From a bacterium (GTDB lineage: Bacteria; Patescibacteriota; Minisyncoccia; Phycocordibacterales; SBAW01), in NCBI GenBank assembly GCA_037139975.1, contig JBAXFJ010000004.1, positions 1 through 57,431 on the forward strand: a stretch of 57,431 nucleotides of DNA, read 5' to 3'. Under the pieces are notes generated by a model, which was not told the DNA's origin, ran no database searches, and saw only the letters and a program-made list of their open reading frames with translations. The position numbers and the translations under genes are program-made. The first letter of the stretch is position 1. Every line of letters begins with the position of its first letter. Of the stretch, positions 3,174-7,869 are shown one piece after another.

Positions 3174-3246
3174 GCCGTTGTAGCTCAGCTGGTAGAGCAG
3201 CTCCATGGTAAGGAGCAGGTCGTCGGTTCAATCCCGACCAACGGCT
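3174..3246 (+). tRNA. tRNA-Thr(GGT)
   Basis: Acceptor stem gccgttg/caacggc, D-arm tagctcag..ggtagagc, anticodon loop atGGTaa, T-loop ttcaatc. Confidence 0.95.
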
Positions 3247-3286
3247 CACGGTTCCAAGAAGAACCCGAGTGTCTGTGCGTGTGCGC

Positions 3287-3359
3287 GCCGAGGTAGCTCA
3301 GTTGGTAGAGCGAGGGTATCGTAAACCCTAGGTCGCCGGTCCGATCCCGGCCCTCGGCT
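3287..3359 (+). tRNA. tRNA-Thr(CGT), integration target
   Basis: Acceptor stem gccgagg/cctcggc, anticodon stem agggt/accct with loop atCGTaa; T-loop tccgatc (non-canonical C at 55). Confidence 0.9.
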
Positions 3360-4848
3360 CAAGTTTCAAACTCAAAGGGGTGTCGCCGCCGGAAATGCGC
3401 GCGGCGCGAAGCGCCGCGTAGGGGGGAATGGGGTTTCCGCGCGCTTCGCGCGCGTGGATTGAGAGGTTCAATCCGAAAACTTTTTGGAGGGGGGATTTTT
3501 TGGAGGGGAGGTCGCTCGATTTCGCTATTTCATCAAGGCGCGAAGCGCCCAAAATCCAATTTCGGACAGGTTCAACCCACGCGGCAGGGGCTTGTTCCAA
3601 ACGCACGATTTGTTCCTCAATCGTGCGGCGTTCGCTGACAAGCGAGCGGCGGCGGGACAAATATTCTTCGCGCTCCAGGTCTTCGGCCACGTATAAATCC
3701 GTCAGGCGCACGTTAGTACGCGAAATCTCTTCAATCTTGGCCTGTAGACCGTGCACGGCCTCTGCTGCTGTTTTGGACGCGTCAGCGGCCTCAGCGTCGA
3801 GCAGTTTAGTGAGCGGCGCTGTCCACTCCTGTGGCATGGCGTACTCGCCAAGAAGCGACGAAAGCTGCGAGTTCAATAACTCGCTGCGCACTGGCACTTC
3901 TGTGCATTTCACAGATTTATTTTTGCGCGTACAGCGGTAATAGGTGTAATGGTGAACATTGCCGTTCAACTGATGCTTCTCTCTAACTTCGGCCGTGATT
4001 GCCATGTTGCACGAACCGCATCGCAGGAGGCCGCAATACGGCGCGGGGTCGGTTTTGATTGCGAGCCTTCGGCCACGTCCGTGCAAAACCACGCTTACTT
4101 TGTCAAAAAGCGATTTTGAAATGAGCGGCGTATGCGTCCCTTCATATAGTTCGTTCGCGTAGCGGAAGTGACCGTAGTAAAACGGATTTTGCAAAATAAA
4201 TGAGATGCGCGAAATGTGGACGCGGCGATTGCCTTTAGACATCACGCCCGCGTTTTCTAGCCACGTCGCCAGCGCATCAAGCGTCGTCGTTCTGCTCGCG
4301 TACTTTTCAAACATCTCGCGCACGAGAGAGGCATTTTTATTGTGGACGTGAATGGTCTTGGTGCGCGGGTCGTTGAGGTAGCCGATAGGGGCGAGGCCGG
4401 GATAAATACCTTGCCGCGCTTTCTGCCGAAGGCCGCGAGAAGTATTCGCGCTCAACTGGCGTATATACTCATTCGCCATACCGAGTTCGACTGACATCAT
4501 CAACACATTGTCGTTCGGATAGTGCGAGCGGTCGTGCGTTTGGATATGACGAATGACGCCCTGTTGCAAAAGCCACTGCACTTGTCCGCCATCGACTGGA
4601 TTGCGCGCGAGGCGATCAATCTCCCAGCAAATGATGCCTTGTGCCTCGCCGCGCCCAATGCGCGACATCATGTCGTTGAATATCGCGCGACCCGGAATCT
4701 TTGCGGATTTCTTTTCGACAAACTCCTCCACAATTTCCAAATTGTCGCGCCTCGCAAGCGCGCGAAGTTCGGTAAGCTGCGCTTCGATAGACAAAATCTG
4801 TTTGTCCTCAACATCGGTAGATTTTCTAGCGTAAAGAAAATACTTCAT
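3328..4848 (-). CDS. Large serine recombinase (resolvase + recombinase + Zn-ribbon + coiled coil)
   Basis: YARKS catalytic motif, DRLAR, PIGY, CGSC..YYRC zinc ribbon; the last codons run antisense through tRNA-Thr(CGT). Confidence 0.95.
   Translation of the reverse strand: MKYFLYARKSTDVEDKQILSIEAQLTELRALARRDNLEIVEEFVEKKSAKIPGRAIFNDMMSRIGRGEAQGIICWEIDRLARNPVDGGQVQWLLQQGVIRHIQTHDRSHYPNDNVLMMSVELGMANEYIRQLSANTSRGLRQKARQGIYPGLAPIGYLNDPRTKTIHVHNKNASLVREMFEKYASRTTTLDALATWLENAGVMSKGNRRVHISRISFILQNPFYYGHFRYANELYEGTHTPLISKSLFDKVSVVLHGRGRRLAIKTDPAPYCGLLRCGSCNMAITAEVREKHQLNGNVHHYTYYRCTRKNKSVKCTEVPVRSELLNSQLSSLLGEYAMPQEWTAPLTKLLDAEAADASKTAAEAVHGLQAKIEEISRTNVRLTDLYVAEDLEREEYLSRRRSLVSERRTIEEQIVRLEQAPAAWVEPVRNWILGASRLDEIAKSSDLPSKKSPLQKVFGLNLSIHAREARGNPIPPYAALRAARISGGDTPLSLKLEPRAGIGPAT
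3358..3509. repeat. Inverted repeat arm A (recombinase 3' coding end); partner 4998-5151
   Basis: Aligns to the reverse complement of 4998-5151 with a long identical core and several substitutions/indels. Confidence 0.9.
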
Positions 4849-4875
4849 ATCTCAAATATCATACCGCATTTCGGG

Positions 4876-4958
4876 GGGAGCCATCCCCGTCGTTTTACAA
4901 TGTTCCTCAAAACGGCGAGGGATGGACTACTCGTGCGCGCATGGGCGGGTGGGGCAAA
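4876..4958. repeat. Direct repeat R1 with hairpin, upstream of the recombinase; partner 6538-6613
   Basis: gggagccatccccg.cgtttta..aaaacggcg.ggatg..gtgcgc..ggggcaaa shared by both copies. Confidence 0.8.
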
Positions 4959-4997
4959 GCACTCCACTATGTATTTATGGATTCCTGCATTTGCATT

Positions 4998-5209
4998 TCC
5001 CCTCCAAAACCCCCTCCAAAAAGTTTTCGGATTTTGTATTTTCTGAACCTCCTCCACGCGCGAAGCGCGCGGAAACCCCATTCCCCCCTACGCGGCGCTT
5101 CGCGCCGCGCGTATTTCCGGCGGCGAAACCCCTCTTGCTTTGAAACTGGAGTCTCTATTGTACTCCGCTAGAACCTACTTTAGCAAAAATCTCGATTGAC
5201 TCGCACGCG
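4998..5209 (+). pseudogene. Remnant 3' end of a paralogous serine recombinase (arm B) containing an intact attP-like junction
   Basis: Translates EARGNPIPPYAALRAARISGGETPLALKLESLLYSARTYFSKNLD*; indels upstream; no N-terminal part. Confidence 0.75.
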
Positions 5210-5394
5210 CCGAGCGCGTGGTGGCTTTGACCTAAATCGTACGCTCCGATTGGGTGGTGGTGCAAGGAATCCCGCCCACCGCGCGGAGTACCGCGCGTCC
5301 CGCCCTCTCGCCTTGCCGCTCCTCTCCATGCTGATTTTTTGCGGGGGGGGGATTTGAAAAAAGGAATGGGCGGCAAAGGCGAGGGGCGGCTTCC
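5145..5394. repeat. 250-bp inverted repeat, left copy (arm D)
   Basis: No mismatch found by eye against the reverse complement of 6706-6955; the ORF track gives the same peptide on opposite strands. Confidence 0.95.
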
Positions 5395-5476
5395 ACTGTT
5401 CACATCTATAAATTGCATGAAGAACGTGGTATTATGTGCATAAGTTTTATTAACAATTGTCCCCACCTTTTTACTT

Positions 5477-6499
5477 ATGCAAAATCAACGAGGATTCGTC
5501 GGTGTCGGTATTTTGATAGCCATAGTGCTCGGTTTGATTGTCCTCGGAGGTGGGGCATATTACGTCATACACCAGCAATCGTCCTCGTCAGCTCTCTCGG
5601 ATAATACTTTGGACAATTCGCAAACTTTGCCGACAAAAAATAATCAGGCGCAAACTACGGCAAATACGCCAACCTCAAAACCATCTGTTACGCTTACTCT
5701 ACCAAAAAGCGGTACGCAGGTTCCTTATGGCGGCAATTTGCAGATTAGTTGGCATACAGCCAATGTTCCGACGAACGCAAAGGTGCTGTTCTACTTGAAC
5801 GAGCCAGCGGATTTCAAGGATGTCGGTCCGATTGATCCGGTTGGGTCAGCAAATGCCGCTGATGGTAGTTATACGTGGCATGTTGATTTGACTGATTGCA
5901 CGGGTTCTGGCTGTAGCACCATCGAGTCTGGAAAATCCTATACATTAACGATAAAAGTAGGAACGCCTCAAGATACAACCAACTGTAACACACATTGCGG
6001 AAATTGGTTTGATTCAATCGCAGAAGCTACAAGTAATTCTTTCATAATTACCAATGGCGCGTCTGCGTCTGCGAATTGGCAAACGTATAGAAGTACAAAT
6101 GGATTCGAAATACAATATCCGCCGAACTGGATTGAACAAGAACATGGTGACGGCCATTCGTCTTTCGGTTTTGTCGCCGCCTTTGGTCAAAAACCTTTCG
6201 GTCCAGATGGATATGACGGCGAACTTTTTGTCGTTGGAAATGATTTTACGAGCACCGAACAATTCATCGCGCAAATGGGCAAGCAATTTGGCGACAGACA
6301 AGAAAAAAGAGAAAGTATTAGTGTAAATGGTCTGTCTGCGCTCAAAGTTACTGTTACTACCCCTTCTATACCGAGTTGGATTTTCAAAGCCGTTATAATC
6401 AAGCGACTTGATCGACCCGATGAGATTTACTTCATTCATAATGGTGCGATTCAGAGCAATGACTTCGAAAAATTCTACGGAAGTTTCAAGCTTATTTAG
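5477..6499 (+). CDS. Membrane-anchored surface protein with a pilin-like N-terminus
   Basis: MQNQRGF + hydrophobic helix, S/T/Q linker, Ig-like beta domain with Cys pairs, PsbP-like WQTY..GFEIQYP.NW C-terminal domain; visibly more AT-rich than the flanks. Confidence 0.75.
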   Translation: MQNQRGFVGVGILIAIVLGLIVLGGGAYYVIHQQSSSSALSDNTLDNSQTLPTKNNQAQTTANTPTSKPSVTLTLPKSGTQVPYGGNLQISWHTANVPTNAKVLFYLNEPADFKDVGPIDPVGSANAADGSYTWHVDLTDCTGSGCSTIESGKSYTLTIKVGTPQDTTNCNTHCGNWFDSIAEATSNSFIITNGASASANWQTYRSTNGFEIQYPPNWIEQEHGDGHSSFGFVAAFGQKPFGPDGYDGELFVVGNDFTSTEQFIAQMGKQFGDRQEKRESISVNGLSALKVTVTTPSIPSWIFKAVIIKRLDRPDEIYFIHNGAIQSNDFEKFYGSFKLI

Positions 6500-6537
6500 C
6501 TTGTGCGCGCTTCGCGCACGCTTGAATGTTTCCACTA

Positions 6538-6613
6538 GGGAGCCATCCCCGCCGTTTTATAATTTTTCCTAAAACGGCGGGGATGATGTGTGCGCACGGG
6601 TGGGAGGGGCAAA
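6538..6613. repeat. Direct repeat R1' with a perfect 16-bp hairpin
   Basis: catccccgccgtttta (6544-6559) pairs with taaaacggcggggatg (6570-6585). Confidence 0.8.
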
Positions 6614-6705
6614 CACATATAGATTTTGCGCCTCGCCATTCCTTAAAGAATTTTGCATGGCGAGGCACCGCTTGTATTTGAATCACACCCTTCCTTTTCC
6701 TAAAA

Positions 6706-6955
6706 GGAAGCCGCCCCTCGCCTTTGCCGCCCATTCCTTTTTTCAAATCCCCCCCCCGCAAAAAATCAGCATGGAGAGGAGCGGCAAGGCGAGAGGGCGG
6801 GACGCGCGGTACTCCGCGCGGTGGGCGGGATTCCTTGCACCACCACCCAATCGGAGCGTACGATTTAGGTCAAAGCCACCACGCGCTCGGCGCGTGCGAG
6901 TCAATCGAGATTTTTGCTAAAGTAGGTTCTAGCGGAGTACAATAGAGACTCCAGT
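6706..6955. repeat. 250-bp inverted repeat, right copy (arm C), ending at attR
   Basis: Reverse complement of 5145-5394. Confidence 0.95.
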
Positions 6956-6981: not shown

Positions 6982-7869
6982 ATGGAAAAAGCCGAGATAG
7001 AAAAAAGAATTGGGGAGATTGAGACGGCGATGGGAGCGTCTGACTTTTGGACTGATAAAAACAAAGCGCAAAGCCTTGTGCACGAACTCAAAGATTTAAA
7101 AGAAGAGGCAGAGCATGGTGGCGGCGCAAATTTTGATAGAGGCAACGCTATTCTCTCTATCGTATCTGGCGCGGGTGGCGACGACGCCGAGGATTTCGCA
7201 CAAATGCTTTTAGGGATGTATCGTAAATTTTTAGAGGGCCGTGGTTGGGGGTATAAGGTGTTGCACGAAAACAGGAACGACCATGGCGGCTATCGCAACC
7301 TCTCTATCGAAGTAGAAGGCAAGGGTGCATACGGCACACTAAAAAACGAATACGGCGTGCATCGACTTGTGCGCATCTCGCCGTTTAATGCCAATCAAAA
7401 AAGACAGACGTCGTTTGTGCTGGTCGAAGTCTTGCCAGTCTTTGCAAAAGTGGGTAGTTTTGATTTGCCTGAAAGCGAGCTCGAGATTAGCTTTGCGCGC
7501 TCGGGCGGCCCCGGTGGGCAGAACGTGAACAAGCGCGAGACGGCGGTGCGCGTGGTGCATGTGGCGACCGGCATCTCGGCCCACGTTGACGGCGAAAGGA
7601 CGCAAGGTGCCAACAAAGAAAAAGCAATCGCGATAGTCAAAGCAAAGCTCGCGCACTTTTTGGAAGCGCAGCGCAAAGAAAAAATCTCGGACCTCTCAAC
7701 TGATACCAATAAGATAGAGTGGGGAAGTCAAATTCGCTCGTATGTCCTCCACCCCTACAAACTCGTCAAAGACCACCGCAGCGGCGTCGAAGTCCACGAC
7801 GCCGAGTCGGTCCTCGACGGCAACCTCGAACCGTTTTTAGAACAGAAAGGAGGAAAAGAGACAGAGTAG
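6982..7869 (+). CDS. prfB: Peptide chain release factor 2 (short form)
   Basis: GGPGGQNVNK, HRLVRISPF (SPF motif), WGSQIRSYVLHPY. Confidence 0.93.
   Translation: MEKAEIEKRIGEIETAMGASDFWTDKNKAQSLVHELKDLKEEAEHGGGANFDRGNAILSIVSGAGGDDAEDFAQMLLGMYRKFLEGRGWGYKVLHENRNDHGGYRNLSIEVEGKGAYGTLKNEYGVHRLVRISPFNANQKRQTSFVLVEVLPVFAKVGSFDLPESELEISFARSGGPGGQNVNKRETAVRVVHVATGISAHVDGERTQGANKEKAIAIVKAKLAHFLEAQRKEKISDLSTDTNKIEWGSQIRSYVLHPYKLVKDHRSGVEVHDAESVLDGNLEPFLEQKGGKETE

Follow-up and report, generated by a model that had tools for sequence, protein, structure and literature searches.

Between tRNA-Thr(CGU) and prfB on contig JBAXFJ010000004.1 (assembly GCA_037139975.1) of a bacterium of the Patescibacteriota lies a 3.6-kb insertion (positions 3358–6955) with genes for a large serine recombinase (LSR) and for a secreted cargo protein of Ig-like type. 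All positions refer to the window, by which we mean the whole stretch of 57,431 nucleotides that was analysed. Here we describe this element, the second, inverted attP-like junction in its middle, and the family of similar elements in the ultra-small bacteria of the candidate phyla radiation (CPR). The features of the element and its flanks are collected in Table 1. The Rfam scan of the window accepted two tRNAs and nothing else; a weak match to HgcC at 5030–5110 (21 bits against a cut-off of 50) was dismissed.

Table 1. Features of the insertion at tRNA-Thr(CGU) and of its flanks, in window positions.
Feature	Position	Strand	Remarks
tRNA-Thr(GGU)	3174-3247		directly upstream of tRNA-Thr(CGU)
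tRNA-Thr(CGU)	3287..3360	+	ARAGORN; Rfam tRNA 63.6 bits; 3′ end is the B half of attB
Large serine recombinase, 506 aa	3328..4848	-	converges on the tRNA
Proximal P′ arm	3358..3509	+	minus strand encodes about the last 50 recombinase codons
attL core AGT	3362..3364	+	sole bases common to all three junctions
Partial hairpin-element copy	4876..4958	+	just upstream of the recombinase start codon; 77% match to 6538-6613
Internal inverted P′ arm	4998..5151	+	
Core of the internal inverted attP-like site	5145..5147	-	ACT on the plus strand
Internal P arm	5145..5394	+	inverted copy of 6706-6955; P half-site and region common to other elements
Promoter-like site TTGCTA-18-TACAAT	5157..5186	-	out of the cargo arm, through the core, toward the recombinase
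Cargo gene, 340 aa	5477..6499	+	N-terminal hydrophobic helix, weak Ig-like match
Conserved hairpin element	6537..6673	+	downstream of the cargo gene; perfect 16-bp stem at 6544-6585
Distal P arm	6706..6955	+	ends in the attR core AGT (6953-6955)
Same outward promoter-like site	6914..6943	+	toward prfB
prfB	6982..7869	+	PCRF and RF-1 domains; host gene on the B′ side of the insertion

The boundaries and the tRNA target that had been assigned to the element by a sequence-only reading of this DNA hold in a comparison with 29 loci of the same genus, 25 of which contain both tRNA-Thr(cgt) and prfB. They lie 0–25 bp apart in 17 of these 25 loci, 88 bp apart in one and 268–1139 bp apart in seven, versus 3621 bp in the window, and none of the seven wider gaps is similar to the window element. 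Insertion at the 3′ end of a tRNA gene, together with the empty sites in relatives, identifies the element as a tRNA-targeting genomic island.

Two pairs of inverted repeats divide the element into two modules. The right pair (5145–5394 and 6706–6955) is 250 nt long and 100% complementary, with 1311 nt between its arms, and it encloses the cargo gene exactly as the sequence-only reading had described; a perfect repeat of this length is beyond chance. The left pair, which had likewise been described as bracketing the recombinase, is diverged. It contains two blocks (3358–3452/5057–5151, 95 nt, 93%; 3470–3493/5010–5033, 24 nt, 100%), and when these are joined, 3358–3509 aligns with 5151–4998 at 84.8% identity over 158 gapped columns, with indels. 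The left and right pairs overlap at 5145–5151, and the inverted attP-like junction (P-core-P′) sits between the modules. The proximal junction has the order tRNA end, AGT, P′; the internal junction, read in reverse, has the order P (right-end sequence), AGT, P′ (left-end sequence); and the distal junction has the order P, AGT, prfB flank. The intact inverted junction that had been noticed at 5140–5160 was recovered in this order as a true inverted attP, and it recurs in relatives.

One sequencing run contains the stretch (share 0.98) and is its probable source, and k-mer depths were taken from the Logan contigs of this run. The two arm pieces have depths of 148.9 and 144.3, whereas the unique parts have depths of 67–93; the doubled depth indicates that the arm is truly present twice. 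Between 2800 and 7400 the depth also varies by module (67–68 in the recombinase, 75–82 in the flanks and 93 in the cargo), which could reflect population heterogeneity or k-mers common to other strains.

The recombinase contains the Resolvase (PF00239, 1.4e-19), Recombinase (PF07508, 9.1e-15) and Zn_ribbon_recom (PF13408, 1.5e-6) domains, the last two of which score above their cut-offs, and it matches the PHROG 95 integrases (1.2e-72). The match to PHROG 125, annotated as 'DNA invertase', covers residues 1–181 only, and the scores against the NCBIfam equivalogs CcrB (92 bits versus 900) and XisF (78.5 versus 375) are below their cut-offs. The catalytic S10 (in Y6-R8-K9-S10) is invariant in all 20 aligned sequences, C277, C280 and C315 are invariant, C306 is nearly so, and the alignment remains conserved up to about residue 470 (G459, N461). 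The serine catalytic domain, the Recombinase and zinc-ribbon domains, and a short core with a shifted motif (see below) place the enzyme among LSRs of the integrase type; with 506 residues and large-recombinase domains, it is not of the Hin/Gin type. Its open reading frame (ORF) reads through the P′ arm to a stop codon within the tRNA antisense. The nine residues that follow the core are thus tRNA antisense at present, and in a flipped module they would be replaced by 15 residues encoded in the cargo arm, so the change of tail foreseen by the sequence-only reading follows from the sequence. The reverse strand of the DNA that encodes the conserved C-terminal G-S/L-N motif (3455–3480) resembles the tRNA T-loop GGTTCGA. 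Such T-loop-like DNA marks the inner end of the P′ arm in three relatives (L098, L101 and L129) and lies about 30 nt inside that end in the window; the constraint may act on the protein or on the DNA.

The same layout recurs elsewhere in the genome. The own-genome survey (a 758-kb assembly of 29 contigs) combined a whole-genome self-comparison, tRNA calls and alignment of the junctions. Diverged copies of the 250-nt arm occur at other places, all but one in inverted pairs, and the window layout is found at six other tRNA loci: tRNA-Gln(ttg), where the cargo is a type I restriction system (ORFs read by eye); tRNA-Ser(cga); tRNA-Ser(gct), with three tandem elements; tRNA-Arg(gcg); tRNA-Arg(cct), cut by the contig end; and tRNA-Leu(gag), with two repeat-bracketed modules and pilin-like cargo, without a recombinase. 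The family layout reads tRNA, core, P′, LSR converging on the tRNA, inverted P′, core, inverted P, cargo, P, core, flank. Family members total about 40 kb, or about 5% of the assembly, by the coordinates of the self-comparison. At the tRNA-Leu(gag) locus (C1:73952-78267) the adjacent modules have arms of 404 bp and 291 bp, both 100% identical, and a 48-bp stretch with the tRNA terminator is present three times (direct, inverted, direct). In the tRNA-Ser(gct) tandem (C1:232287-245733) a 191-bp direct repeat (100%) lies between the elements and ends in a pseudo-tRNA 3′ end; the same 194 bp are present on another contig (C7:6771-7230) ahead of an msrB-like gene, and this contig may be the true distal flank of the array or a strain variant.

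Recombinase relatives occur in 30 of 61 related genomes. The family is abundant, with at least 590 matches among named genomes and 341 close matches in metagenomes. A repeat flanking the LSR was found at 13 of 20 loci of the same order, at 54 of 80 loci from named Patescibacteria-type metagenome-assembled genomes (MAGs; hereafter the CPR-wide sample), including 45 of the 61 loci whose upstream sequence exceeds 400 bp, and at 42 of 80 loci from close metagenomic relatives. In the CPR-wide sample 24 of the 54 repeats are at least 99% identical, and an abutting cargo repeat is present at 17 of the 80 loci. The search for arm copies beside different cargo, which had been suggested as a check, thus succeeded both in the own genome and in relatives, with restriction and pilin-like genes among the cargo. 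Viral contigs yielded 13 distantly related loci whose full-length matches are at most 36% identical; relatives on viral contigs are few and distant, so a phage origin is without support.

The junction triplet (tRNA/core/P′, P/core/P′, P/core/B′) was recovered in the window, in seven further complete elements of the own genome and in 16 other loci. The core is 3–7 bp long across elements, and a conserved motif of the type GGTTC(G/T)AGC, similar to the tRNA T-loop, is present in the P half-site. In all 15 elements compared (10 by script and 5 by eye), this motif lies 4–6 bp further from the core in P than in the target tRNA. This shift fits the 5 bp given by Rutherford et al. (2013; PMC3783163), where the zinc-ribbon motif lies 5 bp nearer the centre in attB than in attP.

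The arms differ in how they have evolved. Compared with the window, the internal arms of relatives with LSR genes about 80% identical in DNA are 92–97% identical, and the proximal arms of such relatives are 88–96% identical, whereas the two P′ arms within one element are only about 88% alike among the close relatives of the window (median 87.9%). The internal arm is therefore conserved across relatives more than the arms of a single element agree with each other, which points to separate conserved lineages and argues that the internal arm is no decaying relic. On the evidence of these alignments, the internal site is maintained by selection. Concerted evolution of the P′ arms was accordingly rejected for the clade of the window, in which the arms are about 88% alike and each lineage is conserved; it is possible in clades with arms at least 99% identical. 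The P arms, in contrast, are 98.8–100% identical within an element and 67–90% between elements, which indicates concerted evolution. Beyond about 56 nt from the core, own-genome P arms are 91–99% identical between elements whose recombinase genes barely align.

Some relatives form arrays. One locus (L199) has the order tRNA-Thr(ggt), second LSR module, cargo, first LSR module and next P arm, with a direct P-core-P′ joint between its two elements, and in another (L177) P arms flank the recombinase on both sides as in L199. The two had been considered as circular forms, but repeat maps and tRNA calls identify L199 as a tandem array, and L177, which has no tRNA on its contig, is read likewise. 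An IS110-family transposase (DEDD_Tnp_IS110 and Transposase_20) lies between the internal arm and the recombinase gene of L177 (L177:1070-2242), and the neighbouring cargo is a type III restriction-modification system. The direct joints match the products that would be expected of attP × attL, and the tandem arrays show that an occupied site can be targeted again. Recombinases 75–86% identical to that of the window (L174–L253) are located at nine tRNA species (Thr-ggt, Thr-cgt, Thr-tgt, Cys, Leu-cag, Arg-cct, Phe, Val-gac and Glu-ctc), a spread that would imply fast retargeting or a relaxed choice of target. Together, the array joints and the nine targets suggest recognition mainly through the tRNA-like half-site.

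The sequence-only reading had proposed that both modules can be inverted. Both orientations of each module do occur among relatives, and the point of LSR exchange lies at the core, so that the support for invertibility is comparative. The LSR converges on the tRNA in 6 of 6 own-genome elements with a true tRNA; in 18 of 22 same-order genes, the other four being without a tRNA call; in 53 of 80 CPR-wide loci, with three flipped (L098, L101 and L129); and in 42 of 80 close relatives, with one flipped (L214). The four samples sum to 119 converging and 4 flipped LSRs, where the two 80-locus samples contribute only loci of determined orientation. In L098, L101 and L129 the order is tRNA 3′ end, arm, recombinase, with the recombinase gene and the tRNA pointing the same way. 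A further candidate (L127), with tRNA-Ala upstream and without an arm, is doubtful and was not counted.

The flipped locus L214 locates the exchange. L214 and L220 share 1582 bp at 100% identity, comprising the upstream arm, the hairpin and the recombinase. The two differ on the left side of the 5-nt core CTCCA, where infB and rbfA precede tRNA-Cys in L214 and the P half-site and arm are found in L220. L181, an 87% relative at tRNA-Cys, is arranged in the standard way; relative to the recombinase, its homologous host flank has the opposite orientation. Among these loci the point of exchange is thus the core, as is characteristic of site-specific recombination.

The position and strand of the hairpin element served to score cargo orientation. 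Of the 20 modules that could be scored, 15 are standard and 5 flipped: 6 and 0 in the own genome, 4 and 1 (L034) among the five scorable of an earlier set of 100 loci, and 5 and 4 among the nine scorable of the 80 close relatives. The cargo of L184 is a flipped 77% homologue of that of the window. In L184, L187 and L034 the flipped cargo lies beside a standard recombinase with a converging tRNA called; in L204 and L241 it lies beside a standard internal junction, with no tRNA called.

We consider it probable that the insertion is a mobile element of a large CPR family in which the inverted attP makes both modules invertible, the LSR module by exchange at the core and the cargo module partly by homologous recombination. 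The LSR would recombine attP (P-core-P′), whose P′ side overlaps the 3′ end of the LSR gene itself, with the very 3′ terminus of a tRNA gene; the tRNA here is tRNA-Thr(CGU), and the crossover would lie within AGT. A second, inverted attP-like site is kept between the modules, so that P′ arms bracket the LSR and P arms bracket the cargo. The LSR module would flip rarely, by site-specific exchange at the core between attL and the internal attP in place, or alternatively by excision and re-integration through the second attP. The cargo module would flip often, at least in part by homologous recombination between its near-identical arms. The recombinase itself presumably catalyses flips. A flipped LSR would run with the tRNA and gain the 15-residue tail, which may switch its expression; such a switch would explain why the flipped state is rare.

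A more far-reaching version, which we put forward tentatively, is that the recombinase may be an integrase and an invertase in one. It would read mainly the tRNA-like half-site, so that no directionality factor would be needed for the internal attP to pair with attL, attR or an occupied site; the flip of its own gene would act as a mobilisation switch that turns expression on and supplies the alternative tail; and the inverted P arms would allow the cargo to be flipped or exchanged, in the manner of recombinase-mediated cassette exchange. The comparative data on the family hint at such pairings beyond attP × attB.

Several observations weigh against invertible modules. The recombinase lies 97% one way, unlike a free switch, and such a strong bias argues that this module is no freely flipping switch. 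L214 and L220 come from different samples, and the orientation variants, which are found in diverged relatives, could stem from independent integrations or cargo swaps. Contigs of the source run break at the repeats, so that the orientation in the window is read from contigs only and may be single and fixed. The internal and proximal P′ half-sites of the window differ at about 6 of the first 20 positions, and with its internal half-site differing near the core this copy may be a poor substrate. The cargo start codon is located 83 bp within its module, which leaves no obvious on/off effect of flipping. Repeats are missing from at least 13 loci whose flanks are amply long, among them the closest named-genome homologues in the matches listed (L083–L086, L090 and L092–L095), and the architecture is therefore common but not obligatory. 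No directionality-factor gene is evident in the element. Finally, canonical integrases are restricted to attP × attB: according to PMC3783163 they do not recombine attP with attL or attR, and other pairings of sites are inactive.

A possible, though rather unlikely, alternative is that the flips are ordinary RecA-dependent recombination. The recombinase would then only integrate and excise, and the repeats would be a by-product kept, for example, for a promoter or operator in the arm. The genome encodes RecA, the cargo arms are identical over 250 bp and evolve in concert, and the module with identical arms flips often while the module with arms about 88% alike flips rarely, all of which this explanation accommodates well. 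Against it stands the L214/L220 exchange, which falls at the 5-nt core and not within an arm, since 5 nt are too short for RecA exchange. An outward promoter-like site lies 9–14 bp from the core in both P arms, one directed toward prfB and one toward the recombinase, but the three promoter-like sites found in the region are not above the 3.2 expected by chance, and the spacing of the −10-like hexamer, read by eye, varies between elements.

It is also conceivable, in our judgement improbable, that the inverted attP is static and never inverts in place. A free circle, like the yeast 2-micron plasmid, would carry two attP sites in inverted orientation within a repeat about 400 bp long, the variants would arise by integration through either site and by replacement of cargo, and the internal site would be inert once integrated. 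This agrees with the attP × attB rule of canonical integrases and with all the junctions, which are compatible with attP × attB products; the 24 CPR-wide repeats of at least 99% identity are what recent arrivals would show, and the L214 junction is the exact product expected of integration through the second attP. However, integration through the alternative attP flips both modules together and cannot explain the flipped cargo beside a standard recombinase in L184, L187 and L034; L204 and L241 show flipped cargo beside a standard internal junction, with no tRNA called. Moreover, equivalent sites should give isomers in roughly equal numbers, yet the count is 119 to 4, and no excised circle was found in any collection searched.

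Misassembly of the repeats, through repeat collapse or a chimeric join in the MAG, is a possibility that the sequence-only reading had itself raised for the 250-bp copy and that the 29-contig assembly and the many related contigs ending within an arm might suggest. It is refuted by the doubled arm depth, by the 85% identity and indels of the left pair, which repeat collapse cannot produce, and by the same layout in assemblies made independently in many studies. Four further models were set aside by reasoning, because their products do not match the order of the junctions: single-stranded dumbbell integration, hairpin-telomere replication, snap-back synthesis and independently excising cassettes.

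The element contains one complete cargo gene and no partial gene segments. The cargo protein matches Big_7 (E=1.7e-4) and Kre9_KNH (E=3.5e-3), both below the Pfam cut-offs, and has no NCBIfam or PHROG match. A candidate cargo promoter at 5413–5441 failed the criteria of the promoter scan and is not claimed. Downstream of the cargo, most elements carry the hairpin element (about 135 nt), with copies in other elements 89–90% identical. It has no Rfam match and may serve as a terminator, as an RNA or as a DNA site. Own-genome copies are located at C1:76638-76775, C1:241236-241378, C1:245065-245193, C7:4610-4704 and C10:8419-8507. Two copies have a compensatory C-G to T-A change in the stem, and one has a different stem at the same place. 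The hairpin element abounds in metagenomes from groundwater and soil, where its depth runs into the thousands. Upstream of the tRNAs, on the minus strand, lies a type II toxin-antitoxin pair (1440–1924) with a ParE-like toxin (PF24732, E=6.7e-7) and a ribbon-helix-helix antitoxin (PF01402, E=4.2e-7).

This family of elements in CPR bacteria is apparently undescribed. The literature search found no description of an internal inverted attP or of the CPR family. The main text of a study of Patescibacteria genomic islands (PMC12455944) does not contain the words 'recombinase', 'integrase', 'inverted repeat' or 'tRNA', and its supplements might list such islands. The family provides a concrete vehicle for accessory genes of CPR bacteria, such as restriction systems, pilins and surface proteins, whose routes of exchange are poorly known. 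Large serine integrases are leading tools for DNA insertion, and the strict attP × attB rule is central to how they are understood. If the recombinase catalyses the pairings considered here, the repertoire of serine integrases would be wider, and parts for inversion or cassette exchange free of a recombination directionality factor could be derived from it.

The family shares features with several known systems. An integron consists of the tyrosine recombinase IntI, an attI site, attC-bounded cassettes and the Pc promoter, and a shufflon combines the tyrosine recombinase Rci with multiple sfx sites and alternative 3′ segments of one gene. Like these systems, the family has variable cargo framed by conserved site-bearing sequence beside a recombinase, and arrays at one locus. 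The suggestion of a shufflon- or integron-like system is nevertheless not supported. The only recombinase is a serine enzyme, the repeats are att arms rather than attC sites, sfx sites and alternative gene segments are absent, and the element lacks every part that defines either system.

Invertases of the Hin/Gin type are small serine recombinases (about 190 aa) with a C-terminal helix-turn-helix, which act at short hix-type sites with an enhancer. As with Hin, Gin, Cin and PinQ, a serine recombinase here lies beside a segment with inverted sites, and both orientations occur. The family differs in its large recombinase, in the hybrid att sites of a mobile element, and in that no cargo promoter or alternative gene end is switched. 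The yeast 2-micron plasmid, which replicates, carries FRT sites in long inverted repeats and the tyrosine recombinase FLP. The excised form of our element would similarly be a small circle with two inverted sites in a long repeat and two flippable unique segments; unlike the plasmid, it has a serine enzyme and no replication gene, and the circle is inferred only.

According to the available text on the archaeal integrases of the SSV type (PMC7253208, PMC5495485), the att site lies inside the integrase ORF and the integrase is implicated in inversions. The element resembles them, as far as that text describes them, in that the attachment site is in the recombinase frame and integration alters the gene. 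The SSV-type enzymes described there are tyrosine recombinases whose gene is split, whereas here only the last 9–15 codons change. With the integrases of phiC31, Bxb1 and A118/LI the family shares the domain set, a short core and an attP motif 4–6 bp further out than in attB. Unlike these phage-type LSRs, the family targets the 3′ ends of many tRNAs, has attP inside the recombinase ORF and a second inverted attP, re-uses occupied sites, has no evident directionality-factor gene and has few relatives on viral contigs. What sets it apart from the known systems is a second, inverted attP under selection, a target in the generic end of many tRNAs, the re-use of occupied sites, and alternative orientations with exchange at the core.

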